Positions 43,856 to 57,622 of a stretch of DNA of 64,000 nucleotides are shown in pieces. Below the pieces are notes generated by a model. That model saw only the letters and a program-made list of their open reading frames with translations, ran no database searches and was not told the DNA's origin. The translations under genes were made by a program, and so were the position numbers. The stretch is from contig JBGAWK010000001.1 in the NCBI GenBank assembly GCA_044227665.1, positions 96,793-160,792 on the forward strand, given 5' to 3'. This DNA is from Chitinophagales bacterium (GTDB taxonomy: Bacteria > Bacteroidota > Bacteroidia > Chitinophagales > JADIYW01). Numbering within the stretch: the stretch's first letter is position 1; each line of letters begins with the position of its first letter.

Positions 43856-45032
43856 ATTTTGTTATAACAGGTAAAATATTTATTATAAAATATTTAAAAC
43901 CAACAGTATATATGTCTTTCCTCATTGGTATTTCTTTTTCGTCAGCAGGAATTATGATATAATTTTTTTTACATTGCAAATCTTTTATGCTCTCTGTCAT
44001 TCCTTTACTAATATTTGGCGAATGACTCCATTTTATTTCAATACAGCAGATAGGATTAATGCCTTTTACAAGTATGAGGTCTATCTCGCTTCCGTCGTGA
44101 GTTCTATAAAAGAAGGGCTGAATGTTTCTAGGTAATTTTTGGCATATTTGCTCTAAAACATAGGATTCCCAAGAGTATCCTACTATGGGGTGCACTTGGA
44201 GTGTCTTATAGTCGTGTATATCTAGTAGATGATGTAGAATACCCGTGTCGGTGATATAGACTTTGGGACTCTTTACAAGTCTTTTTCCTATATTGATATA
44301 GTATGGCATGAGTTTGCGAACGACAAATGCGCCTTCAATATAGTCTATATATCTGTTTACTGTAGTTGGGCTGATATCCAATCCTTTGGCGAAGGATTGG
44401 GCATTCCATATGCCACCATGATGGTGTGCCAACATTCGCCAAAGTTTGAACATAAGTGTAGAGGAGAAACTTACACCAAATAGTGTATTTAAGTCTCTTT
44501 CTATATATGTGCGCACAAATGCTGCTAACCATGTAGCCGCTGCTGCATCTGTTTTTGATAAAAACGCATCGGGAAATCCTCCTCGCAGCCAGTGTCTGCG
44601 TAGGGCATTGGGCTTCCCAGCTATTTCGCTGTAATGAAAGGGGAAAGCATGAATGTAGGCTATCCTGCCTGCGAGGGATTCGCTTACACCCCGTATAAGG
44701 CTTGGACTGGCAGACCCAAGCAGTAGAAAGCGCCCTGCAATGCGTTTTCTATCTATTATTGAGCGTAATAAGGCAAAAATTTCTGGCATCCGTTGTACTT
44801 CATCAAGGATGAAGAGGCTGTCTTCGTTTTGCGTAAACAATAATTCAGGGTCGCTAAGCTTTCGTATATCGGCGGGACTCTCCAAGTCCAAATAGAAACT
44901 GTCTCTTTTTTGGATGGACTGATAGTGCTTAGCGATGGTAGTCTTGCCACACTGTCGCGGCCCTAGCAGGCACACCACAGGAAATTGCCTGGCATACTGT
45001 ACCAAATCCGATTGTATATGCCGTGATATCAT
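43854..45032 (-). CDS. AAA+ ATPase with a DUF4143-type C-terminal domain
   Basis: Walker A GPRQCGKTT and Walker B LFILDEVQ. The C-terminal half (TDTGILHHLL...) follows the AAA_14 plus DUF4143 architecture. The ORF track extends to 45068, but that extension is made of repeat copy 2. ATG 45032 (MISRHIQSDLV) is the preferred start. Confidence 0.8.
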   Translation of the reverse strand: MISRHIQSDLVQYARQFPVVCLLGPRQCGKTTIAKHYQSIQKRDSFYLDLESPADIRKLSDPELLFTQNEDSLFILDEVQRMPEIFALLRSIIDRKRIAGRFLLLGSASPSLIRGVSESLAGRIAYIHAFPFHYSEIAGKPNALRRHWLRGGFPDAFLSKTDAAAATWLAAFVRTYIERDLNTLFGVSFSSTLMFKLWRMLAHHHGGIWNAQSFAKGLDISPTTVNRYIDYIEGAFVVRKLMPYYINIGKRLVKSPKVYITDTGILHHLLDIHDYKTLQVHPIVGYSWESYVLEQICQKLPRNIQPFFYRTHDGSEIDLILVKGINPICCIEIKWSHSPNISKGMTESIKDLQCKKNYIIIPADEKEIPMRKDIYTVGFKYFIINILPVITK

Positions 45033-45052
45033 ATAACAAATATATAAAAATA

Positions 45053-45095
45053 ATTCCCGAAAATCCAAACTTAAACTGATGATTTTCGGGGAAAA
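45053..45095. repeat. Copy 2 of the 39-nt hairpin repeat (imperfect stem)
   Basis: ttcccgaaaatccaaacttaaactgatgattttcgggga compared with copy 1 tccccgaaaatcaaaacttaaactgatgattttcgggga gives 37 of 39 identical positions in the same orientation. Confidence 0.8.
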
Positions 45096-45211
45096 TATTT
45101 GACTTTACTAGTGTACACGTTTTTTATTTTTAAAATAAATGTATCTATCAAAATAATCTCCAATAAGTATAACTTGTAAATGAATTGGAATAATTGGTGG
45201 ACTTACAATAC

Positions 45212-45233
45212 TTATTAAGTAGCTACTTAATAA
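45212..45233. promoter_or_regulatory. Perfect 22-bp palindrome in the AT-rich spacer; candidate operator
   Basis: ttattaagta gc tacttaataa has 10-bp arms that are exact reverse complements. Confidence 0.3.
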
Positions 45234-45473
45234 TCGAAATAATGCATTAAGTAAGCATAATAACATTCAAAATTTCATCATTAGATTATAAACGTCTCAT
45301 TTTTGTTTCTATTGTTTTAATGATTGTAAAATGAAATTAGTGCACATCTAATTTTACTCATATTGATTTTAAATTATTTATAATCAATGTTTTAAGAATT
45401 AAATATAAACTCATTTGTTAAAAATTTATTTATCCACAATGTTTTGTTTAATTTTATAAACTAAAACATTAGT

Positions 45474-46004
45474 ATGATAAAATATATACAATTTATTTTA
45501 GTCTTTTTTACTATTAATAATATATTTTCTCAAGGAATACTTAGAGATAAGGTTATTAAAGAAATTGCTAAGCAGATTTCTATTCAAGAGATTGATGGAG
45601 GTCAATCCGTTTCATTTAATGAATCTACAAAGATTTTGGCTATTACTTATTATAATCAAAATCTTCTTTCAGACACCATTCGTAAAAAAATATATACTTT
45701 GCTTTGTAGTGAATTGGATTTTTTTAATAGACTTCAAATAAATTCAAAGAAATTACTGATTAATAGTATAATAACTTATGATATGTCTCATCTGGGAAAT
45801 CCTTTGTATAAAGAAGAATATCGAGACTTTGAAAAAGTTGTAATGAATATCTTCATTAATCAATTTTCGGATTATATAAAGTACGACAATGATTCACGAA
45901 GCCTCACCTTTGTGAATGATGAAGTTAAAGTATCGTTTTTGGGTAAGGATTGGGCCTCAATAATTGAGGATTTGTCTGACAAATTATTGAATACAACAAA
46001 ATAA
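45474..46004 (+). CDS. Small secreted hypothetical protein, very AT-rich
   Basis: 176 aa with signal-like N-terminus MIKYIQFILVFFTINNIFSQ. It ends 6 nt before the start of the giant gene. No family recognised. Confidence 0.55.
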   Translation: MIKYIQFILVFFTINNIFSQGILRDKVIKEIAKQISIQEIDGGQSVSFNESTKILAITYYNQNLLSDTIRKKIYTLLCSELDFFNRLQINSKKLLINSIITYDMSHLGNPLYKEEYRDFEKVVMNIFINQFSDYIKYDNDSRSLTFVNDEVKVSFLGKDWASIIEDLSDKLLNTTK

Positions 46005-46010
46005 ATTCCT

Positions 46011-48302
46011 ATGAAAATATTCTACAAATTTATATTATTTGTATGCTTATATTGTGTAAGCACACAAAATAGTTCTGCTCAAAAAAATATAAAATTAAAC
46101 ATATCACAATTACGTTTATCTGGATTGAGTACTGGATGTGATGGTATTGGTGCAGAAGAACCGAGATGGTATTTTACTAATGATAAATCTGGAACAGATT
46201 GGTGTGATGAAGAAAGTTCATCCAGTTCTGGCAATCAAACTTGGGCTAAAAACAATGATATTTTTAATGAAAGCTATATATGTCCTTCGGATATACCAGC
46301 CACCATTAGTGTTCGGATGAGGGCATGCGAGAATGATGGGGCAAGTTGTTGGACTTTATCTTCGTGTGATGGAGGTCAACACGACCATTCAGAGTCCATT
46401 ACCACTACTGCTACTAATGGTACGTATACTAATACCAATGGTTGTGGTTCTTATTTTTATACAGATAACCATGGTGGCTGTGGCGATGCTGATTATGGGT
46501 ATACTATTCAGATGATAGTTTCAGGCTCTTGGCAAACCACTAAGAACCAAAATGCTAGCGGTAATATTACTAATACAACTTGTCTAACAGCCATAGATAT
46601 CACTAGTGGTATAGGAGCTATGCCTACTAATGATGGCTGGAGAGGTCCCATACGTGGACATATCAAACGGTGTGGCGATATCTACTATAAATTCAACCTT
46701 ACCACTAATGTGTCTTATTTTGAAATAGATATGTTTAATGGTGATGGTGATGTAGATGTTTACTACATGAATACGGATGGAACTTGCGGCTGTGCAGTAT
46801 CTAATGATGCAGGAATATTTGATTATGATTTCAAAGAAAACAGCCCTAAATTGGGATGGTATGTAATTAAATTGAGAAATGGTAGTGACTACGTTGATAT
46901 AGATTTCCGTACAGGTGGTGGTGTAACCCGCCCTGGTAATGACAACATATCTTGCGCTACTCTTATTGGTACTGGTGGTACTATAGATGTTTGCGAATCA
47001 GGCTCTTTGACGAGCAATAACATTAATGCTACTGATGAGGACGTGTGTGGTGTAGATGAACCGCAAGAAAATGATAATAGAACTGTATGGTACAAATTTG
47101 TAGCTGGAAGTACTATAGGTACTAATTTAAAGATAAAGGTTACGAATAATGGTGGCGATAATATGACACCAGATATTGCACTATTTAAGCAAGTGACAAC
47201 ACCAGGTCTCTGTCCCACACTATATGGATATAATACAGGATTACAATATCTTGCGGATAATAGTGGCACATATTTAGTGGATAATGATGCGGAGGTAAAT
47301 ATTACCTCTTGTTCAGGAGCATATACCGCAGGTGCCACCTATTTTTTGCAGATAGATGATGAAGGTGGGACAGCGGGTATTGGATATTATGATGGTGATT
47401 TTAAGTTGGAATGGTGGGATAATGGAAAGATAGAGGGACAAAATTATATTTGTAGTGCTGCAGATATGACGGCAGCACCACCCGCCACCTCAGGTGCTTG
47501 TTCCTATGGCAGTAATGCCGATGGTGATGGTATTCTGGAAGTTTCGGAAACGATATCTAGGCTAAACCAGTCCAACTATTGTGCCAATACAGAAGTTGGT
47601 GAGCCTGAATTAGGATCTGTAGTATGTGTAGATCAAATTGCAAGCACAGTATGGTATAAATTTACTACCGGCACTATTGCTGCTCCTATTACCGTAAGGG
47701 TATGGGATGATGGAGATGCAGGTGGTTCCGATGATATAGATCCCTATTTTTCTGTATATAAATCCTGCGTGGGATGTACTTTTGGTACTAACCTCGTTCA
47801 GGTAGGCGAAGCAGGAGGTACGGATGTGCTTGGTGGCGCCGAAGCTGATGACTACTCCATCACCTTCAATCCTGCGCCTAGTTCCACCTATTATATACAA
47901 GTAGGGGGTTGGGTAGATGGGGCTCTTTGTGGCAACAGCGAAAAGGGCGATTTCAATGTCTCAGCATCTATGGCGGCTACAGCGCTAAAGGGTGACTACA
48001 TCTGCGATGCACATATTGCAGGCAGCACAGGATGGTCGGAGACAGGAGGCACGAATAACGATTTACTGGATTTAGGTGAAACAATGCAAACCACAAGCGT
48101 ATTCACCAACAAAGGATTCTATTCGGTAGAAGATGGCTGTGGGCTAGATGAGCCAGATAATAGCGATGGCGATGAAACAGTGTGGTTTAAATTTAAAACC
48201 TCAGGCACAGTGGGTTCAGAGATAGCCGTAAATGTAGATGCTGTAAATGGTTCTGGAGAAGGGGCTGCTTGCCCAGGAGGAGTTGGTACCACCTTTGCTT
48301 AG
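46011..48302 (+). CDS. Giant T9SS cargo protein, segment A (signal peptide, N-terminal Cys-rich region, modules 1-3 and first half of module 4); ends at an in-frame TAG
   Basis: 763 codons. Signal peptide MKIFYKFILFVCLYCVSTQNSSAQ. Repeated motifs NDxxCxA / CxxxxxEP / VW[YF]KF. Same reading frame as the next ORF. Confidence 0.85.
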   Translation: MKIFYKFILFVCLYCVSTQNSSAQKNIKLNISQLRLSGLSTGCDGIGAEEPRWYFTNDKSGTDWCDEESSSSSGNQTWAKNNDIFNESYICPSDIPATISVRMRACENDGASCWTLSSCDGGQHDHSESITTTATNGTYTNTNGCGSYFYTDNHGGCGDADYGYTIQMIVSGSWQTTKNQNASGNITNTTCLTAIDITSGIGAMPTNDGWRGPIRGHIKRCGDIYYKFNLTTNVSYFEIDMFNGDGDVDVYYMNTDGTCGCAVSNDAGIFDYDFKENSPKLGWYVIKLRNGSDYVDIDFRTGGGVTRPGNDNISCATLIGTGGTIDVCESGSLTSNNINATDEDVCGVDEPQENDNRTVWYKFVAGSTIGTNLKIKVTNNGGDNMTPDIALFKQVTTPGLCPTLYGYNTGLQYLADNSGTYLVDNDAEVNITSCSGAYTAGATYFLQIDDEGGTAGIGYYDGDFKLEWWDNGKIEGQNYICSAADMTAAPPATSGACSYGSNADGDGILEVSETISRLNQSNYCANTEVGEPELGSVVCVDQIASTVWYKFTTGTIAAPITVRVWDDGDAGGSDDIDPYFSVYKSCVGCTFGTNLVQVGEAGGTDVLGGAEADDYSITFNPAPSSTYYIQVGGWVDGALCGNSEKGDFNVSASMAATALKGDYICDAHIAGSTGWSETGGTNNDLLDLGETMQTTSVFTNKGFYSVEDGCGLDEPDNSDGDETVWFKFKTSGTVGSEIAVNVDAVNGSGEGAACPGGVGTTFA

Positions 48303-51300
48303 ATGAAAGTTTGGGAATGGACAGGAACAGGAACAGGTCCTGCTTGTAATGATGCTACACGCTTTGATCCTTTGAAATTGGTAGATATCGGCACGCCTGA
48401 TTTAGTGGACCAAAGCAAGGAATATATAGAGTGTCCGAAAGCAAATACTTGGTATTTTGCACAGTGTGAACTAGGGTTTGGGTCAACTTGTGATAGAGCG
48501 AATTTTAATGCTACAATCACCGACAATGGCATTCCACAAGCACCTAATGACCGTATCTGTAATGCTACCGTATTGAGTACACCTACCTATACGAATCCAC
48601 AATCATTGGTGGGAACATATACGACACATACACTTATCAACCAAAATAATTTCTGTGCTACAAATACAGGGGAGCCTACACCGAGTTGTTTTGGCACTAA
48701 TGATCAGTCGGTATGGTATAAACTACCTGCCGCCGCTGCTCCAGGGGCTAGCGATATATCTAACCCAGGTAGGAAGGTAGTTATCGTCAACGCTTACAGT
48801 CAACATCCGGCAGGTGTCGAAGATGAGATAAACCTCCAACTGGCATTATATACCAATAGTAATATGGCTTCTTGCCCTACTAACCCTACAACTGGATTTA
48901 CACTTACTAGTGATATTCAAGGAAATAATTGTGCTTATGTAAGTCCATTAAGTATAGATCCGGATCAAGTTCTTCAATTGAGTGAATATCTTACTGCAGC
49001 TTGTCTTACACCAGAGACTGATTATTATTTGATGGTGGATGGTGAAGTTCCATTTTATGATGTCCTAACTCAGTATCTGAAAGAGGGCTGGTTTGAGTTT
49101 GATGCTTACTATCCCCGTGAAGTTGGGGACATACCTTGCAATGCTGTGCCTTTCAAATTATTTGGAAATAGTAATGGATTTAATACGGGTTATGACAATG
49201 CTGCCGGAGCATTTGGAACAGGCGATGCATCAAAGACGGGTTTGACAGACAATCTTTACAATAATTCAAATCTTTGTACTACTTATACGCCGGGTACCGG
49301 TGCTAATCAGGAACCGGGAACTACATTTACAACTGGTGATGGCAATGATAATCCGGGATGGGTATATTTCTATGCCCCACCGAGTGGCTCTGTACGTATT
49401 ACGGCTACTGCCGACCCTCAAGATATCATGAAAGATGGTACTTTTGATAATATTGATTTACAATTGGCTATATATCAAGAAACCACACCTGGTAATTGCT
49501 CGATAATACAACCGCCACAGTCTCCGGTGTCTTCTATCGTGAGTTATAATGTCTTAGATGGCTATGGCGAAGTTATGTATGTAAACTGCCTCACGCCCGG
49601 AAGAAAATATTATTTGGAAATAGATGGCTCCGCATCTCCTATCACACAAACAAGAGGTATTTTTGACTTAAAAATTGAAGACTACCAACCTAATGCTTAT
49701 GCGCCTAATGATGAGATGTGTAATGCGATTCCTTTTAGTGATTCTTATATAGCGACAAATACGTGGAATAGAATCAATTATAAAGACACTTTATATATTG
49801 CAGATACCAAAAACTGGTGTGCCGACAACCTCAACGAACCCGGAAGACCTGCTTTAGGCGGTTATAATGAAACAGGGGTGTGGTATAAATTTATAGCACC
49901 CCCCTCTGGAAAGATACATATTCTTGCAGAGAATACAGACTACGGCACATTGAGCAAGCCCTCAGGAGACCCCAACCATATAGACCTATCATTGGCAATC
50001 TATAAACTGAATTCTGGCTACTCCTGTACACAATATGCTATTCCTGAAGCTACTACACTGATTGTTCAGGATTATCAGAATCCACTTGTTACCTCTGGTG
50101 TTGCAATTGCGGGAACATCTGTAGAAGATGAAGAGATGGAAGTTTCATGTCTTATTCCGGGACAAGAATATTACCTTCTAGTATCAGGTAAAAAGTCAGC
50201 AGGCATAGGCTCCGACTGGGATTATGGTAGATTCAATCTTACTATAACTTCCGACCCTCGCAACCCTGCTTCCTGGAATGGAGCATATAATACGGTGAGT
50301 GGTAATCAATACTTACCAGCTACGATTAATCCAAGTATAGATACCGTATGTGGTGCTGCTAATTTGGGTACAATGCCTGCGGGTACAACCTGGTATCAAC
50401 CGTTTACAGACAGAAAAGTACCGAATAATTGTAGCTCCAATTTCTATATGTCTCCGACATTTAACAATTTCTGTGCTACCGCTACCAGCGACCCTACACC
50501 GGGGTATCAGCAGAGTGTTGTAAATGCATTTGGTAGCAATCACCAACCGGTATGGTTTAAGTTTACTACACCAGCAACAGGAGCTTATGACCCATCTATT
50601 ATTAGTGTAGAAATAGAGGCTATATCTGGAGATTGTTCTACTGCGATATTGGATGATTGGTTTGACAATGGATGTTCTCCTAGTGATGAAGTGTATCAAG
50701 ATTGTATAGACTTAGGCGTTTCTTTGTGGATGGCTAGTGACGGAACATGCTCAGGACCTTTATATGAAATGGGCAGTGATTATGATCCGGGCTTTTATGA
50801 TGAGAATGCCACCATACATTGCTTAGATCCTAATACTACCTATTATATCATGGTGGATGGATCGGCACTAAACAAAGAAGGGAACTTTAATTTAAGGGTG
50901 CGTCAGGTAAATCCTGATCCGCGCCCTTCAAATAATTTTATTTGCAATGCTAAAAAATTAACTACCGGTGCGGCAAGTTCTGCTGCTTCTTTCTGGGGCG
51001 GTGGTGCAGCATTTACTTATGAAAAAGACACAAATATTTGTGCAGATACTAGATTAAATGTGAGTAGTGCTGCGGGAACAGAACCTATTCCCTCAGGATG
51101 GGATGTGGTTTCACCTCCTTCAGATGCTGCTGATATGACGCATACAGTATGGTATAGCTTTATGACACCTACTGCTGCGGGAGATTATGCTGTACATATA
51201 GATGTAAATAGTGATCTTCCTTGGCCTTTTGGCGATTTGGTGAATCCAAAAATTGCCGTTTGGGAGTCTCAAGATGGTACTTGTAGTTATTCGCATCCTA

Positions 51301-54003
51301 ATGGTACCAATATGGTAGAAATGGCAAGCGAGTATGATCCTTTGGCCTTTTGGGGTGAATCTATAGATGTATATTGTTTGAAGCCAAATACATTATATTA
51401 TGTACAGGTGGGTGGAACACTCAATGTATATGGTCAGGAACAAGGATTCTTTGATATTGTGATTAATGACATTCCTCCAATTACTATACCCGCAAATGAC
51501 AATGTATGTAGTGCATTCAATGTAGGCACTACTACCAATGCAGGCTCTGTGACTATCTCCTCTACGCCGGGCAATAAGATAGGAAATGCATCTTCTGGTG
51601 CCAATAATTATCATAATTATTGCACTGATTTAGAGGCTGGAGAACCACAACCAGATGCTTTCACCGCAGATAATACGGTATGGTTTAAGTTCATGACACC
51701 TAATGTGGCGGGTAAGAGATATGATGTTACTGTCAATGCAAATTCTGATCCTGCTCCTGACCACAATGATGGCATAAATCTACAATTAGCGTTGTATGAG
51801 TCCTCAGATGGCACTTGTGATTTTGCGAAATTTACGGAGTTAGGGTCTGATTTTGATGCATTACTTTGGGACGAAACGCTGTCTGTTACTTGTTTGAAAC
51901 CTAATATGACCTATTATGTACAAGTAGATGGCACCAAAGGTTTCTTGGAACTGTTCAGGGCACAGGGTTTTGGGTACTTTGGCTTAGAAGTAGTGACCGA
52001 TGCCGTATATAATGCACCATCTAATGATGATGCATGTAATGCCACCAATTTAGGCACAGTGCCTATTGCAGGCAATATCAATAATGGAACATGGTACTAC
52101 AACAACTGTGCTACTACCCAAGTGGGAGAGCCTATAGATATACCTACAGATATCTCAAGCTATGATGTAGATAAATCAGTATGGTTTAGATTTACGGCGG
52201 CAAGGGATGCGGATTATACGATACAATTAGAATCAGATGCCTTATTAGGTACGGATCCTATAGATTTACAAGTAGCTGTTTTTAGAGCCACAAATGGATG
52301 CAGTGACTTCAGTGGATTTGTACAAGAAGCAGCCGATTATGATGCTGGATTTTTTGATGAAGATCTTACATTGCCTTGTGTAAAATCAGGACAAGAGTAT
52401 TATGTACAAGTAGATGGTTCTTCACTGAATATGGAAGGAAGATTCAAGATTCGCATCTATGATGATGGTGCTGCGACATCAGGCCCTGCCAATGATAATA
52501 TTTGTAGTCTTACTACGGCTGGGGCGGCGTTTGCTACCATAGCATTAACCGGGGCAACACAGGGAATTACTAATCAAAATAATATCTGTGCTACTACCGA
52601 GGTCGGTGAACCTAATGCACCTGCGGATGTACAAAAATCTGTATGGTACAGATTCCAAGCTTCAGCGTCAGGACGCTTACGCCTTACTTTACATGATGCA
52701 GATGGAGCATTTAGAGGGTTAGATCCTGAAATGTATCTCTACGAAGTAGGGCCTACATGGAATTGTAGTTTTGGTTCTTGGACGACTCCGGGTGTAGAGA
52801 TGGCTAGCGCATACAATCCTATTCCTGATGTTCCTATTATTTGTCCTAACTGCGGTGACGAAGAAATAGAATATGAGTGCTTCATTCCGGGATGGTGGTA
52901 TGTCGTTCAAGTGGATGGTACAACTGTAGGGGGTGCACAAGGTAAATTTGACCTTACTATAGAAGATTTATTATATCCTTATACAATACCTTCCGGTAAT
53001 CAACCTGCAAATAATGATATTGCGAATGCTGTAACTGTAACGGTACAAGATGAGCAATGTGTGGTAACTGATGGTGAAGAAATTCAGGGTAGTGGCTCGT
53101 GGCAGACCTATTTGCTCCATAACGGATCTTTGTGGCGATACATGGTATAAATTTACTGTGCCGGCAATAACGTGTGCTCCAGGCTCGCCTGCGGGAAGTA
53201 TGCCCGTATATACACCAATAATGGTTCAAGGTAGCGCACGTTATGATGCTAACCTTGTGGATGATGAAAGTAAACTCCACGTGATAGCTTATAAAGGAAC
53301 ACCTGGAAGTCTTACAGCAATAGGCTGTGGAACAGCAGGGAAACCTAATTTGACTACGGGAGATCAATTCTTTAACTTTGAAATTAGTGAAGCTCAAGGT
53401 ACTGTAATATATCTGCAAGTGTTTGGGGAACAGGCACTAGACTGGGATAAAGACTTCGATTTATGTGTGAGTGAGCGCAAAGGATTCGATGAGTGTATTC
53501 ATGCAGCACAAGCTCCTCCTATGCAATATGGCGTAGAGTATTGTTATAATATTAAAGGAGCAACATCAGAACCAGCAAGTAATGGCTATGCAGAATCCTG
53601 TCCTTTGACAGGTATTCCGGGTATTCCTGATCCGGATTCTGATGCACCTACAGAAAACTCTATCTACTTTAAATTTACTACGGACAATAGTTGTGCTGAT
53701 TATAGACTGACTTTTAAATATTACTTTACGACATATTCAGCATTAAATAACAAAGGAATTTCTTACAGTATTTACAAAGACAATACTCCTTGTGATGGAG
53801 CGCCTATAGGCTCCGGCACATTGGATTGTCAGTCTTTCTATAATACTTCTATTTCTAGTAATACATACGTGATTACTTATCAAAATAATATGTATCTCAC
53901 AGTTGCAAGTGGAATTGATACAAGTGCCACATATTATATTCAGATAGACGGTCCCGGACAAACTTTTGGGAACTTAGACGGCACAATTAAGATTGAGCAA
54001 GTT
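46560..54003 (+). repeat. Array of about 14 tandem protein-level repeats (about 118-220 aa each), PPC-like cysteine-bearing modules
   Basis: Module boundaries estimated from the recurring P.ND..C.A start motif. In nt: 46560, 46914, 47424, 47976, 48537, 49113, 49686, 50256, 50913, 51471, 52002, 52470, 52971, 53479, ending 54003. The repeats have diverged at the DNA level. Confidence 0.75.
48303..53150 (+). CDS. Giant T9SS cargo protein, segment B (second half of module 4 through first half of module 13)
   Basis: 1615 codons. Eight complete modules of 156-219 aa, each with P.ND..C.A, N.C[AT][TD]...EP, VW[YF][KR]F, [IL][DN]L[QS][LV]A[LIV][YF], C[LF].P...YY[ILV].[VI][DGS]G and G.F.L.[IV]. No signal peptide of its own. 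Confidence 0.85.
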   Translation: MKVWEWTGTGTGPACNDATRFDPLKLVDIGTPDLVDQSKEYIECPKANTWYFAQCELGFGSTCDRANFNATITDNGIPQAPNDRICNATVLSTPTYTNPQSLVGTYTTHTLINQNNFCATNTGEPTPSCFGTNDQSVWYKLPAAAAPGASDISNPGRKVVIVNAYSQHPAGVEDEINLQLALYTNSNMASCPTNPTTGFTLTSDIQGNNCAYVSPLSIDPDQVLQLSEYLTAACLTPETDYYLMVDGEVPFYDVLTQYLKEGWFEFDAYYPREVGDIPCNAVPFKLFGNSNGFNTGYDNAAGAFGTGDASKTGLTDNLYNNSNLCTTYTPGTGANQEPGTTFTTGDGNDNPGWVYFYAPPSGSVRITATADPQDIMKDGTFDNIDLQLAIYQETTPGNCSIIQPPQSPVSSIVSYNVLDGYGEVMYVNCLTPGRKYYLEIDGSASPITQTRGIFDLKIEDYQPNAYAPNDEMCNAIPFSDSYIATNTWNRINYKDTLYIADTKNWCADNLNEPGRPALGGYNETGVWYKFIAPPSGKIHILAENTDYGTLSKPSGDPNHIDLSLAIYKLNSGYSCTQYAIPEATTLIVQDYQNPLVTSGVAIAGTSVEDEEMEVSCLIPGQEYYLLVSGKKSAGIGSDWDYGRFNLTITSDPRNPASWNGAYNTVSGNQYLPATINPSIDTVCGAANLGTMPAGTTWYQPFTDRKVPNNCSSNFYMSPTFNNFCATATSDPTPGYQQSVVNAFGSNHQPVWFKFTTPATGAYDPSIISVEIEAISGDCSTAILDDWFDNGCSPSDEVYQDCIDLGVSLWMASDGTCSGPLYEMGSDYDPGFYDENATIHCLDPNTTYYIMVDGSALNKEGNFNLRVRQVNPDPRPSNNFICNAKKLTTGAASSAASFWGGGAAFTYEKDTNICADTRLNVSSAAGTEPIPSGWDVVSPPSDAADMTHTVWYSFMTPTAAGDYAVHIDVNSDLPWPFGDLVNPKIAVWESQDGTCSYSHPNGTNMVEMASEYDPLAFWGESIDVYCLKPNTLYYVQVGGTLNVYGQEQGFFDIVINDIPPITIPANDNVCSAFNVGTTTNAGSVTISSTPGNKIGNASSGANNYHNYCTDLEAGEPQPDAFTADNTVWFKFMTPNVAGKRYDVTVNANSDPAPDHNDGINLQLALYESSDGTCDFAKFTELGSDFDALLWDETLSVTCLKPNMTYYVQVDGTKGFLELFRAQGFGYFGLEVVTDAVYNAPSNDDACNATNLGTVPIAGNINNGTWYYNNCATTQVGEPIDIPTDISSYDVDKSVWFRFTAARDADYTIQLESDALLGTDPIDLQVAVFRATNGCSDFSGFVQEAADYDAGFFDEDLTLPCVKSGQEYYVQVDGSSLNMEGRFKIRIYDDGAATSGPANDNICSLTTAGAAFATIALTGATQGITNQNNICATTEVGEPNAPADVQKSVWYRFQASASGRLRLTLHDADGAFRGLDPEMYLYEVGPTWNCSFGSWTTPGVEMASAYNPIPDVPIICPNCGDEEIEYECFIPGWWYVVQVDGTTVGGAQGKFDLTIEDLLYPYTIPSGNQPANNDIANAVTVTVQDEQCVVTDGEEIQGSGSWQTYLLHNGSLWRYMV

Positions 54004-55194
54004 CCTGTATGCTTGCCAATAGTCATAGACAGTATGCCGGTAGTATCCATGACACAGTATTATACTTGTGGAGATGGGTGGCGTCATTACTATCATACTG
54101 TTGGCTCTCAGAGAAAATATAAGTTTTCGCTTTATGACAATGGCAATACTTCACTACAAGGTATAGCTAAAATCTATTACACTACAGATCATTATACAGA
54201 GTCTATTGGTTGCGAATATGCATCTCATGTAATGAGAAGATACTGGGATTTTGAAATTACTTCAGGAACTATTGATCCAGCGAAACCTGTGAAAATTAGA
54301 TTCTATTATTTACCCATAGAAAAACAAGAAATAATAGATACCATGATGAGTTTCCAAGCAAATGGCTGTCTTGGTACTGCGGAAGGATTCGAATGGTTTA
54401 AGTCTTGTAATGGTATTGCCTTCGATTATGCTGCGCATACGAATCCATACTATGTGTACGCATGTTATGGTAGTGGCTTAGCCACAGGGGCTGCTTTCTC
54501 CCTTACTACAGTAGATGATGTATCATGTAATAATGTAACGTATGTGGAATATCAAGGACTGACTGGTTTCTCAGGAGGTACAGGCGCCACGGGTAATGGC
54601 TATGCCCCTACGCCACTACCTATAGAACTAATATCTTTCACAGGCAGCTATAACGAAGCCAACCATACGAATGATTTACAATGGGCTACAGCTTCAGAAT
54701 TCAATAATGATTATTTTGTGGTAGAAAAATCTTTGGATGGTACAATATTCGTTCCAATAGGCACAGTGGATGGTGCAGGAAATAGTAATACAGTATTAAA
54801 TTATACTTTGATAGATCCTAATCCTGTCATAGGCAATAACTACTATAGATTAGTACAATATGACTTTGATGGTACAAGCACAACTTCGCCAATAATTAAT
54901 ATCAAAGTTGCAGATCCTGTCCCTTATCAGGCTACGTATATAGATAGAATATATCCGAACCCTACTAGTGGCAAGTTAAACATTGACATTATCGTATCTG
55001 TAGAACAACTTTCTCTCAATATGAGCGTTACAAATGTAATAGGTCAGCACATGAGAGATGAAGTGTTGAACTTACAGAAGGGCAAGAACACCATAGTGTT
55101 GGATGCTTCAGAATATGCCCAAGGGGTATATTTGATTAACTTAGTAAACAAACTTAAAGATATAAATCTCAAGAGTAAGTTTGTGAAACAATAA
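53071..55194 (+). CDS. Giant T9SS cargo protein, segment C (+1 frame: second half of module 13, module 14, two further domains, T9SS type-A C-terminal sorting domain)
   Basis: 707 codons. CGDTWYKFTV and SIYFKFTT module motifs. A pre-CTD domain LISFTGSYNEANHTNDLQWATASEFNNDYFVVEKSLDG...YYRLVQYDFDG. CTD IYPNPTSGKLNIDI...GVYLINLV...KFVKQ. No signal peptide of its own. Confidence 0.85.
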   Translation: MVKKFRVVARGRPICSITDLCGDTWYKFTVPAITCAPGSPAGSMPVYTPIMVQGSARYDANLVDDESKLHVIAYKGTPGSLTAIGCGTAGKPNLTTGDQFFNFEISEAQGTVIYLQVFGEQALDWDKDFDLCVSERKGFDECIHAAQAPPMQYGVEYCYNIKGATSEPASNGYAESCPLTGIPGIPDPDSDAPTENSIYFKFTTDNSCADYRLTFKYYFTTYSALNNKGISYSIYKDNTPCDGAPIGSGTLDCQSFYNTSISSNTYVITYQNNMYLTVASGIDTSATYYIQIDGPGQTFGNLDGTIKIEQVPVCLPIVIDSMPVVSMTQYYTCGDGWRHYYHTVGSQRKYKFSLYDNGNTSLQGIAKIYYTTDHYTESIGCEYASHVMRRYWDFEITSGTIDPAKPVKIRFYYLPIEKQEIIDTMMSFQANGCLGTAEGFEWFKSCNGIAFDYAAHTNPYYVYACYGSGLATGAAFSLTTVDDVSCNNVTYVEYQGLTGFSGGTGATGNGYAPTPLPIELISFTGSYNEANHTNDLQWATASEFNNDYFVVEKSLDGTIFVPIGTVDGAGNSNTVLNYTLIDPNPVIGNNYYRLVQYDFDGTSTTSPIINIKVADPVPYQATYIDRIYPNPTSGKLNIDIIVSVEQLSLNMSVTNVIGQHMRDEVLNLQKGKNTIVLDASEYAQGVYLINLVNKLKDINLKSKFVKQ

Positions 55195-55337: not shown

Positions 55338-56546
55338 ATGTATGTTACCTCAGATATTGAAAATCTGCAAAAAGTAATCGTACACAGGCCTGATATGGGC
55401 ATAGAGTACATTACGCCGGAAATAGCAGAACAATTATTGTATGACGATATCGTATTTCTACCTCGAATCATTGAAGAACACGACAATTTTACAGATAGTC
55501 TGAAAAAATTCATTGGCAAGGATAATGTAATAGAAATCCAGCAACTTCTTACAGACATTATCAAAGATGACGATGCCAAAAATGATATTCTTGAGAGAAT
55601 AGCTTCTTATCACAACCTCAATCTGTCTAGGCGTGAGAAATTGAGAACATTAGAATATGAGCAACTATCAGAGACCTTGATATCTGGGCTACATCCCAAT
55701 ACAAAAGAAGTATTGTTGCCGCCACTTCCAAATTTGGTATTCACTAGAGATCTCGCCTGTGTCATCCAAGATATGATAGTAGTCTGCAAAGCACATAAGC
55801 AAGCAAGGCAAAGAGAAAACATCTTATTTTCGTATATTGTAAAGTACCATCCCTTATTTGTGGGGTTCTCTGATAAAGTCTTAGATTTTACCCGAGAAGA
55901 CTATTTTAGCAACACCGCTATATCTATTGAAGGGGGCGATATAATGGTTTTGGGAAATAAGCATGTTTTGATAGGTAAGAGTGAGCGCACCACGCTGGCG
56001 GCCATAGAGTTGCTAAAGAACTTTCTCTTTGACAGAAATATTTTAGATACACTTACAGTTGTAGAATTACCGGAGGCTCGATATTGTATGCATTTAGATA
56101 CCGTCTTTACATTAATAGATAGGAATACAGCGGTAGGCTATGCGCCATTAGTTTTTGAGGAAAACGAAGAACTAGGCGTAGTAACTTACATAAGGGATAA
56201 ACACAAACCCCTATTTTATCCTACCCTAAAGCATCTATTACATGATTATAATCCTGCAATGACACTCATCTCTTGTGGAAATGGCATACACCCATTCGAT
56301 AAAAGGGAACAGTGGACAGATGGGTGTAATTTGGTTGCAGTAAGACCGGGAGTAGCTTTTGCTTACGAGAGGAATATTTATACGCTAAAAGCATTGAAAG
56401 GTGCAGGATACGTATCTCTCAGTCCCCGAAAAATGGATACCCTACTACAAGAAAACCTTAAAGCTATTATTACTATATCTTCTTCAGAATTATCACGAGC
56501 CCGCGGAGGACCCCATTGCATGACCATGCCATTGTGGCGCGCCTAA
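55338..56546 (+). CDS. arcA: Arginine deiminase family protein
   Basis: 402 aa. Guanidino-group-modifying-enzyme fold motifs, including the C-terminal catalytic Cys context RGGPHCMTMPLWR. Confidence 0.7.
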   Translation: MYVTSDIENLQKVIVHRPDMGIEYITPEIAEQLLYDDIVFLPRIIEEHDNFTDSLKKFIGKDNVIEIQQLLTDIIKDDDAKNDILERIASYHNLNLSRREKLRTLEYEQLSETLISGLHPNTKEVLLPPLPNLVFTRDLACVIQDMIVVCKAHKQARQRENILFSYIVKYHPLFVGFSDKVLDFTREDYFSNTAISIEGGDIMVLGNKHVLIGKSERTTLAAIELLKNFLFDRNILDTLTVVELPEARYCMHLDTVFTLIDRNTAVGYAPLVFEENEELGVVTYIRDKHKPLFYPTLKHLLHDYNPAMTLISCGNGIHPFDKREQWTDGCNLVAVRPGVAFAYERNIYTLKALKGAGYVSLSPRKMDTLLQENLKAIITISSSELSRARGGPHCMTMPLWRA

Positions 56547-56593
56547 GCACCTATTATACAGGCAGAAATTTATGACAATACTTTTTCTTTATT

Positions 56594-57622
56594 TTAGGAC
56601 TGAGGCTCAAATGCAGGGATAGCCTTACAGATATGCTCTATGTCGGCAGGGCTGATGTCCAAATGTGTAACCATACGCATTAATCCTTCACCCATATCAA
56701 TGATCCATATATTGTTCTTTTCAAGATGTTCCGTAAATTGCTTTGCGAGCCGTGGGCTCTTCATGGCAAAGATGATAATATTAGTTTCAACGGGCAATAA
56801 GTGTTTTATATACTTGCAATCTTTGAGTGTATTTGCAATAATTTGAGCATGATGATGGTCAATATGAAGGCGGACAATATTATTGTCCAATGCATAAACA
56901 CAAGCCTGAGCGAGATATCCGGATTGGCGCATTCCGCCGCCAAAGGCTTTCCTGTATTTTCGAGCCTTTTTTATATATGAGGATGTTCCTAGTAATGCAG
57001 AGCCTACTGGTGCTCCCAAGCCCTTGGAAAAGCAGACAGTAATGCTATCACAATGCTTGCCTATAAATTTTTCGTCATACCCCTCATGGATAATAGCATT
57101 AAATATCCTAGCACCATCTATATGTAAAGGAATTCCTCGTTTTCTACAGAAAGTATAAATGTTGAAAATTTCATCTTGTGTATAGCAGATGCCACCAGCT
57201 CTATTTACAGTGTTCTCAATAGTTACAAGACCAGTAGTTGGCAACCAGTCGTGATGCTGGCGGATATGATTGGTGATGTCCTTTACATTGAGTTTGTTAT
57301 CCTTACCATGTATGATAGCGGCACATATCCCAGAAAACATTGCATATCCCCCATTCTCATATTGCAGTATATGGGAATTGTATTCAGCAATGACCTCCTG
57401 CATGGGCTGGGTATGTGTTTTTATTGCCACTTGGTTGCTCATAGTTCCGGAAGGCATAAACAAAGCTGCCTCCATGCCGAAGCGTTCTGCCACTTTCATC
57501 TCTAAGGCAAGAACGGTAGGGTCTTCACCAAAAACATCATCTCCTACTTCTGCCAAAAACATAGCCGCCAACATAGCTTTGTCCGGTTTTGTAACCGTAT
57601 CACTTCGTAAATCTATAATCAT
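56594..57622 (-). CDS. ltaE: Low-specificity L-threonine aldolase (PLP-dependent)
   Basis: 342 aa. DLRSDTVTKP N-terminus, GDDVFGEDPT, SGTMSNQ, and a PLP lysine region CFSKGLGAPVGS. Confidence 0.85.
   Translation of the reverse strand: MIIDLRSDTVTKPDKAMLAAMFLAEVGDDVFGEDPTVLALEMKVAERFGMEAALFMPSGTMSNQVAIKTHTQPMQEVIAEYNSHILQYENGGYAMFSGICAAIIHGKDNKLNVKDITNHIRQHHDWLPTTGLVTIENTVNRAGGICYTQDEIFNIYTFCRKRGIPLHIDGARIFNAIIHEGYDEKFIGKHCDSITVCFSKGLGAPVGSALLGTSSYIKKARKYRKAFGGGMRQSGYLAQACVYALDNNIVRLHIDHHHAQIIANTLKDCKYIKHLLPVETNIIIFAMKSPRLAKQFTEHLEKNNIWIIDMGEGLMRMVTHLDISPADIEHICKAIPAFEPQS

Follow-up and report, generated by a model that had tools for sequence, protein, structure and literature searches.

In their classical context, pre-peptidase C-terminal (PPC) domains (PF04151) follow the catalytic domain of a secreted protease on its C-terminal side, in one to three copies, and the collagen-binding domains of ColG and ColH (1nqd, 4hpk, 2o8o, 3jqw) and the collagenase domain 5sv5 share their jelly-roll fold. 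A further domain of this fold, the claudin-binding C-terminal domain of Clostridium perfringens enterotoxin (C-CPE; 2quo, 3am2, 7kp4), binds a protein ligand; it occurs singly, in a pore-forming toxin, and is neither repeated nor linked to the type IX secretion system (T9SS). Among T9SS-secreted proteins, SprB of Flavobacterium johnsoniae is a giant surface repeat adhesin composed of many beta-sandwich repeats. Here we analyze a gene carried on 64,000 nucleotides (nt) of DNA assigned to a Chitinophagales bacterium (contig JBGAWK010000001.1), referred to below as the window; all positions are those of the window. The region studied is the body of one gene for a giant T9SS cargo protein of an uncultured Chitinophagales-like bacterium (Bacteroidota). 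Its conceptual product consists of a predicted signal peptide, an N-terminal domain (NTD), 13 to 14 head-to-tail modules, a 314-amino-acid (aa) region and a type-A T9SS sorting domain. We give a probability of roughly 80% to the reading that this is a broken gene for a giant T9SS surface protein, in which an array of modules of the PPC superfamily would serve as a multivalent adhesin or binding array.

PPC-type modules in a head-to-tail array

A previous reading of the window by a model that saw only the DNA and its translations (the sequence-only reading) had proposed about 14 tandem modules between positions 46560 and 54003, built from motifs in a repeated order. A regular-expression search and a hidden Markov model (HMM) built from the protein itself, both applied to the conceptual translation, bear out this order: VW[YF][KR]F, YY.Q.DG, ND..C.A and C[AT][TD]..EP recur at regular spacing. 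The array boundaries that we derived, 46566 and 54006, agree with those proposed, and the self-profile together with hhalign yields 13 solid modules and a doubtful one. When the profile was iterated on the protein itself, eleven modules were matched at E values of 1e-30 to 1e-55, spanning aa 308 to 2318; the same profile gave a twelfth match at aa 2492 to 2660 (E = 9e-30) and a weak signal near a frameshift. The type represented by module 13 is homologous to the canonical-module profile over its full length (hhalign probability, 97.9%; E = 5.7e-13), and module 14 aligned with the module profile at a probability of 94.5%. The doubtful unit is module 1, which has only an IYYKF strand in common with the others, gave marginal matches to the self-HMM and reached an hhalign probability of 1.2%; it is conserved at about 76% in a related protein, P0013.

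Modules of one protein are 155 to 197 aa long, share 19 to 36% identity and are joined by linkers of 1 to 8 residues. No tandem repeat was found within the gene at the nucleotide level, and the modules are therefore old duplications. Each module proceeds from an N-terminal P.ND...A..L strand through a WY.F strand, a D.ID.Q.A.Y strand and the segment C.P..TYY.QVDG to a final G.F.L.I, and the ND motif, which in ColG s3b belongs to an N-terminal segment that binds Ca2+, is kept at the start of most modules. The order of elements is that of PF04151, namely, ND...A..L, WY.F, D.DL.LY, G.YY..V and a final Y/F.L.V strand. In the modules, the first strand of the PPC-type core (P.ND..C.A..L) is set apart by an insertion of 25 to 60 aa with the motif N.C[AT]T...EP, and longer modules have a second insertion ahead of C[LF].P..TYY.

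The fold of the modules was examined with an AlphaFold2 model of module 11, for which a 65-module alignment of the family served as input. The model has nine strands and a long ordered loop at residues 24 to 55, with a predicted local distance difference test score (pLDDT) of 92.8 and a predicted template-modelling (TM) score of 0.89. A Foldseek search of the model against the Protein Data Bank (PDB) gave 47 matches at E ≤ 1e-3, among which PPC-fold domains predominate. The top matches were C-CPE (E = 7e-5; probability, 1.0), which has a sequence identity of only about 10 to 14% to the modules; the ColG collagen-binding domain s3b (probability, 1.0; target-normalised TM, 0.66 to 0.72); the Bacillus anthracis collagenase PPC domain 5sv5; and the C-terminal jelly roll of Tk-SP. 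Probabilities were 1.0 for 4hpk, 1nqd, 2o8o, 1nqj, 5sv5 and 3jqw, with target-normalised TM values of 0.52 to 0.72. We take all of the leading matches to share the PPC or collagen-binding-domain jelly roll. Because the model matches ColG, the collagenase PPC domain and C-CPE, each module is, according to its predicted structure, a beta jelly roll of the PPC/collagen-binding-domain superfamily.

Comparison of sequences with curated families gave a fainter version of the same assignment. None of the window modules had an above-threshold match in Pfam or NCBIfam, in keeping with the earlier suggestion that no existing model covers them. PF04151, whose gathering score is 25.9 bits, did not match any of the 14 window modules even at E ≤ 5. 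The only family to touch them was PF23759 (GBD_T9SS_assoc), in one module of the 14, at the VWYKF strand of module 7 (E = 0.014). The PF23759 model starts at the same ND motif, includes the WY.F strand and occurs in T9SS cargo, but it has 116 positions. Its best single-domain scores were on the module-13 type, at 17 to 24 bits in six homologs (cut-off, 27 bits), and it matched neither module 13 of the window nor the intact ortholog P0174. Across the family, 15 of 65 modules matched PF04151 at E ≤ 1 (best E, 1e-5) and 15 of 65 matched PF23759 (best E, 2e-4); whole homologs reach the whole-protein cut-offs of both families only via summed weak matches. The profile of the window modules aligned with the PPC domain 2luw at E = 0.11, and the deeper 65-module profile had no match among PDB sequences at E ≤ 10. 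These family-level matches to PF04151, together with the Foldseek leaders, uphold the PPC likeness that the sequence-only reading had proposed from the motifs.

The modules also depart from PPC domains in several respects. Whereas the Pfam model of PPC has 70 positions and the solved domains have 96 to 117 residues, window-type modules are 150 to 200 aa long; they carry the N.CAT..EP insertion of 25 to 60 aa and four conserved cysteines. In the homolog P0009, the 70-position model aligns at residues 1205 to 1282 of a module that spans 1153 to 1297. The alignment thus starts only at the WY.F strand and leaves the first 50 or so residues uncovered, which agrees with the earlier proposal that the modules exceed PPC length through an extra Cys/EP segment. 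Further, the modules form arrays of 2 to 23 without a peptidase domain, in contrast to the appendages of a protease that PPC domains constitute. Searches for a peptidase or another catalytic domain were negative in the three open reading frames (ORFs) of the window gene and in the homologs P0002, P0004, P0005, P0009, P0028 and P0029. The idea that the modules belong to a protease pro-domain was rejected, as a catalytic domain is absent throughout the gene.

The modules might alternatively constitute a new fold or family unrelated to PPC, their motif likeness being coincidental. Such an origin would account for the failure of every window module to pass a Pfam or NCBIfam threshold and for the lack of PDB sequence matches to the 65-module profile. 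It is largely refuted by the Foldseek matches, most of them to PPC-fold domains, by the 15 of 65 modules that match PF04151 and by the summed matches with which whole homologs pass the PF04151 and PF23759 cut-offs, and we consider it highly improbable. The modules are a divergent sub-family, unmodelled in current domain libraries, of a known domain superfamily.

In the 65-module alignment, four cysteines are conserved at 90% or more. We analyzed the co-occurrence of cysteines in 870 complete modules from 173 proteins, which are related sequences and hence not independent samples. Profile positions 9 and 93 showed the strongest co-variation in the presence of cysteine (odds ratio, 177), followed by positions 32 and 118 (odds ratio, 35); the odds ratios of all remaining pairs were 2.7 to 6.3, and modules with 4, 6 or 2 cysteines greatly outnumber those with an odd count. 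Two disulfides per module had been proposed previously. Their number is supported by the co-occurrence; a pairing of neighbouring cysteines is not, as the data point to pairs 1-3 and 2-4. Each module thus probably contains two disulfides, Cys1-Cys3 and Cys2-Cys4.

Lesions in the array gene

The array is not one open frame: the sequence-only reading had overlooked an in-frame TAG codon in module 4 (48300 to 48302) and a frameshift near 53109 in module 13. The first two ORFs of the gene share a frame and are separated only by this TAG, and the third lies in the +1 frame and overlaps the second. Two intact relatives align across both lesions. P0028 (3475 aa) matches aa 217 to 3060 of the conceptual protein at 57% identity in a single BLASTP high-scoring segment pair, and P0174 (3425 aa) shows 92.8% identity between aa 307 and the C-terminus. 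Two independent assemblies, L001 and L002, carry the P0174 gene with identical sequence, and the window and this locus are 83% identical in DNA. At the TAG site, L001 reads GCGTGGATG and the window reads GCTTAGATG; tryptophan is present in P0028 as well. After position 53109, the window lacks 50 nt relative to L001, which removes NYGKPTRDLNNGLGGGG, and the protein alignments to P0028 and P0002 also cover this site. Recoding of the TAG and programmed frameshifting were both considered and rejected, since tryptophan is encoded at the position of the TAG in the orthologs and the shift of frame comes from a 50-nt gap, not from a slippery site.

Compared with L001, the window gene has a ratio of nonsynonymous to synonymous substitution rates (dN/dS) of 0.038 as a whole and of 0.035 and 0.031 downstream of the lesions, at a dS of about 0.9. 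Because the ratio stays low, also downstream of each lesion, strong purifying selection prevailed for nearly all of the divergence, and the lesions either arose very recently or stem from the assembly. If they are artefacts, the gene would be intact in the organism, with the TAG and the 50-nt deletion being metagenome assembly errors or minority variants fixed in the consensus. This would explain why dN/dS is as low downstream of the lesions as upstream. The window is itself probably from a metagenome bin, judging by its nearest relatives, all of which are such bins. We nevertheless think an intact gene unlikely: two independent lesions of different kinds lie in one gene while all seven neighbours keep the length of their orthologs, homopolymer errors do not typically take the form of a G>A substitution or a clean 50-nt gap, and nucleotide repeats, which could cause mis-joins, are absent from the gene.

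The difference in kind between the lesions, the intactness of the seven neighbouring genes and the absence of DNA repeats that could mislead an assembler lead us to favor lesions that are real, which we regard as likely. This copy of the gene has most likely become a pseudogene recently. Translation from the first start codon of the present sequence would give no full-length protein but a truncated product of 763 aa, comprising the N-terminal part and lacking the sorting domain.

Family distribution, conserved ends and proposed role

We scanned 1.84 billion representative proteins in full with HMMER, using the 14-module profile as the query. At E ≤ 1e-3 the scan matched 3914 proteins, of which 1161 and 214 also passed E ≤ 1e-10 and E ≤ 1e-30, respectively; the longest arrays have 23 modules, and the module type is common in uncultured Bacteroidota. 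Long arrays of this module are therefore less unusual than the sequence-only reading had supposed, and all of these 3914 proteins are unnamed or hypothetical. The labels in use are "T9SS type A sorting domain-containing protein", "hypothetical" and "SprB repeat-containing", none of which is specific, and the named sources are metagenome bins of Chitinophagales, Sphingobacteriales, Saprospiraceae and Phaeodactylibacter. A word-indexed search with the 14-module alignment returned nothing, which reflects a limit of the index, since the full scan gave 3914 proteins; a search of a genome collection with the 1615-aa ORF found no relative. Searches of the literature on PPC arrays in T9SS proteins and on PF23759 gave nothing relevant, and no published description of such arrays was found.

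Since the fold is an established one and giant repeat proteins secreted by the T9SS are commonplace, the locus reveals no new principle. What it brings to light is a domain sub-family present in about 3900 representative protein clusters, with a recognisable grammar and two conserved putative disulfides, that currently goes unannotated; the conserved NTD and pre-sorting-domain region that accompany the module family are likewise unannotated. With a profile of its own, the sub-family could be annotated in thousands of very large proteins from Chitinophagales, Saprospiraceae and related groups, and candidates for studies of adhesion or predation would be flagged. To this, the window contributes one gene of the kind with recent decay and an apparently mosaic 5' end.

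Both ends of the protein recur in the family. The sorting domain, at residues 627 to 707 of the last ORF and hence at the extreme C-terminus, scores 41.7 bits with PF18962 (cut-off, 27) and 28.8 bits with TIGR04183 (cut-off, 23). Export by the T9SS, which had been proposed from the DNA, is thus indicated by a domain above both cut-offs, and a sorting domain of the same type terminates 87 of the 173 relatives. The 314-aa region that precedes it is found at the equivalent position in 46 of the 173 family proteins. It had no Pfam match and no match among PDB sequences; we take its last 100 or so residues (LPIELISF...YYRLVQYDFDG...) to resemble a beta-sandwich often found ahead of sorting domains in Bacteroidota proteins.

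At the other end, a hydrophobic N-terminus ending in SSA before a Gln was read from the sequence as a putative signal peptide. The AQ pair is nearly invariant: in an alignment of 42 N-terminal domains, Gln occupies the second position in at least 90%. Bacteroidetes prefer Gln at the mature N-terminus, which the AQ pattern fits. The NTD follows the signal peptide directly in 57 of the 173 family proteins. As the sequence-only reading had recognized, the first 180 or so residues form a different region: in an hhalign comparison with the module profile, they matched only where they overlap the next module. No Pfam family was found for the NTD, with one family member marginally matching a Notch-ligand C2-like family (E = 0.026). 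In an AlphaFold2 model (pLDDT, 79.8), the NTD is a beta-sandwich, for which Foldseek returned C2 domains most frequently (best E, 2e-3; TM, 0.4 to 0.5) and no match at E ≤ 1e-3. The top matches were the C2 domains of Jagged-1 (4cc0), which is disulfide-rich and extracellular, and of cPLA2 (1rlw). Like them, the modelled NTD is an eight-stranded beta-sandwich of similar size; the match is nonetheless weak (E ≥ 2e-3; TM, 0.4 to 0.5).

The same NTD is combined with exactly two modules, SprB repeats (PF13573) and a gliding-motility C-terminal domain (PF13585) in five relatives of about 1150 aa (P0023 to P0027). By their domain composition, these proteins link the module family to gliding-type surface adhesins. 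Like SprB-like adhesins, the window protein is very large, built of repeats and carries a signal for T9SS export, and it is the short relatives of the module family that carry SprB repeats themselves. It differs from SprB in that its repeat unit is PPC-like and its sorting domain is of type A rather than type B.

From these features we propose how the intact protein would work. It would be exported by the Sec pathway, fold and form its disulfide bonds in the periplasm, and pass through the T9SS; as with other type-A cargo, it would subsequently lose its sorting domain and become attached to the cell surface. The jelly rolls, being joined by short linkers, would form a long semi-rigid stalk of tens of nanometres that offers many repeated binding surfaces and displays the NTD at its far end. 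Because a long stalk of many repeated surfaces would carry the NTD at its tip, the protein may act as a multivalent adhesin or binding array. It is by analogy with known systems that we infer an adhesin or stalk role.

Two other functions were weighed against this role. If the modules were carbohydrate-binding modules (CBMs), the protein would be a multivalent polysaccharide-capturing surface protein instead of a general adhesin or stalk. PF23759, the nearest Pfam family, is described as galactose-binding-domain-like, and the lower Foldseek matches include a porphyran-binding CBM (8xmz), CBM35 (3zm8) and the sugar-binding domains of cycloisomaltooligosaccharide glucanotransferase. However, the best structural matches are domains that bind protein (a collagen-binding domain and the claudin-binding C-CPE), zero CBM families were matched by sequence, and the surroundings of the gene contain no glycoside hydrolase, SusC/D or other polysaccharide-utilisation gene. 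Capture of polysaccharides is therefore distinctly unlikely.

A second possibility is that the array is purely structural, a spacer stiffened by disulfides and possibly by Ca2+, and that all specific binding is performed by the NTD at the tip. The direct succession of signal peptide and NTD in 57 relatives with 2 to more than 20 modules is consistent with such a spacer, as are the free variation of module number between conserved ends and the linkers of only 1 to 8 residues. Against it, modules within a protein are just 20 to 36% identical and yet dN/dS between orthologs is about 0.04, from which it follows that each module has its own conserved surface, beyond what a spacer needs. Moreover, P0174 has no match to the NTD profile, though its N-terminus is alike in style by eye. 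We regard a mere spacer as a minority possibility.

A bolder proposal, which we consider speculative and improbable, would make these proteins an unrecognised class of T9SS surface fibres. Such fibres would have fixed ends (a C2-like, disulfide-rich tip and, at the other end, the terminal module pair, the 314-aa region and the sorting domain) and an expandable, disulfide-locked PPC stalk; the tip would bind membranes or surfaces of prey or host in a Ca2+-dependent manner, and exchange of N-terminal cassettes at module boundaries, of which the mosaic-looking 5' end of the window gene is suggestive, would create a variable adhesin system.

Several points weigh against the reading of the locus as a broken gene for a PPC-type surface adhesin. 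No window module exceeds the threshold of any curated family, and membership in the PPC superfamily is argued from the fold and weak sequence bridges. The disulfide pairing is drawn from nothing but co-occurrence among related, non-independent sequences, and the likeness of the NTD to C2 domains falls below the usual significance level of Foldseek. For the family members, we only infer binding and a surface location, and the neighbourhood of the gene is housekeeping and gives no hint of function. Finally, both lesions could have arisen as errors in the assembly or consensus of a metagenome bin, and the gene would then be functional.

Gene layout, 5' end and neighbourhood

Table 1. Features of the array gene in the window; module boundaries are approximate
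Feature	Position (strand)	Description or basis
Whole gene	46011..55194 (+)	9.2 kb; conceptual product of ~3060 aa; split into three ORFs by two lesions
ORF 1	46011..48302 (+)	763 aa
ORF 2	48303..53150 (+)	1615 aa
ORF 3	53071..55194 (+)	707 aa
Predicted Sec signal peptide	46011..46079 (+)	MKIFYKFILFVCLYCVSTQNSSA followed by Q; Gln as mature N-terminus; putative cleavage site
Cys-rich NTD	46080..46565 (+)	Residues ~24-185 (~160 aa); beta-sandwich distinct from the modules
Module 1	46566..46928 (+)	Doubtful short unit, 121 aa (aa 186-306); without ND, N.CAT and EP motifs
Modules 2-12	46929..52976 (+)	Eleven canonical PPC-like modules, 155-197 aa; self-profile E values, AlphaFold2, Foldseek
Module 2	46929..47426 (+)	
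Module 3	47442..47975 (+)	
Module 4	47985..48530 (+)	
Module 5	48537..49121 (+)	
Module 6	49122..49691 (+)	
Module 7	49698..50264 (+)	
Module 8	50328..50918 (+)	
Module 9	50922..51482 (+)	
Module 10	51486..52010 (+)	
Module 11	52014..52478 (+)	
Module 12	52482..52976 (+)	
In-frame TAG inside module 4	48300..48302 (+)	TGG (Trp) in orthologs
Module 13	52992..53481 (+)	Divergent penultimate type, closest to PF23759; broken by the deletion; hhalign
Site of 50-nt deletion relative to ortholog	53109..53110 (+)	NYGKPTRDLNNGLGGGG lost, frame shifted +1; DNA alignment to L001
Module 14	53482..54006 (+)	Divergent terminal type; self-profile E 9e-30; hhalign 94.5%
Conserved 314-aa region	54007..54948 (+)	Without named family; between array and sorting domain
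T9SS type-A C-terminal sorting domain and stop codon	54949..55194 (+)	PF18962 and TIGR04183 above cut-off

The 5' end of the gene looks mosaic. Over positions 45098 to 46928, an upstream ORF of 176 aa and the first 306 codons of the array gene have no nucleotide similarity to the L001 locus, and similarity begins exactly at 46929, the first codon of module 2. The NTD segment of about 170 aa is about 76% identical to the start of P0013; over the first 667 aa, identity to P0013 is 46%, and it falls to 24 to 29% in later modules. The break of homology at a module boundary, along with the restriction of the likeness to P0013 to the N-terminal part, suggests that a cassette may have been exchanged at this boundary.

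The small upstream ORF (45474 to 46004) has a start resembling a signal peptide and ends 6 nt ahead of the array gene. Small secreted-looking ORFs of 193 and 152 aa likewise end 3 to 10 nt before the array genes of L001 and L003. We considered the small ORF as a part of the system and rejected it, since the three proteins (window, L001 and L003) have no convincing similarity. The interval 44001 to 46000 has the lowest G+C content of the window (0.337, versus about 0.40 elsewhere) and coincides with the stretch that leads up to and into the non-homologous 5' region. At the equivalent place, L001 has two extra genes, one of 467 aa and one with an HTTM domain, that are not in the window.

Downstream of the array gene, the window, L001 and L002 have in common genes for an arginine deiminase, an aminotransferase-like protein, a rhomboid protein, TerC, an S41 peptidase, a sulfite/nitrite reductase and TauE. 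None of 80 loci around the sulfite-reductase gene in other Bacteroidota carried an array gene, and synteny is therefore not kept beyond close relatives. The lineage of the window lies nearest to uncultured Chitinophagales, with none of which a conserved neighbouring enzyme shares more than 68% identity. No RNA genes were found, and a scan for sigma-70 promoters and terminators gave matches at the level of shuffled sequence and was uninformative. Between the arginine deiminase and aminotransferase-like genes, L001 and L002 both have a gene of 289 aa without a Pfam match; at this place (56531 to 56654) the window has only about 125 nt.

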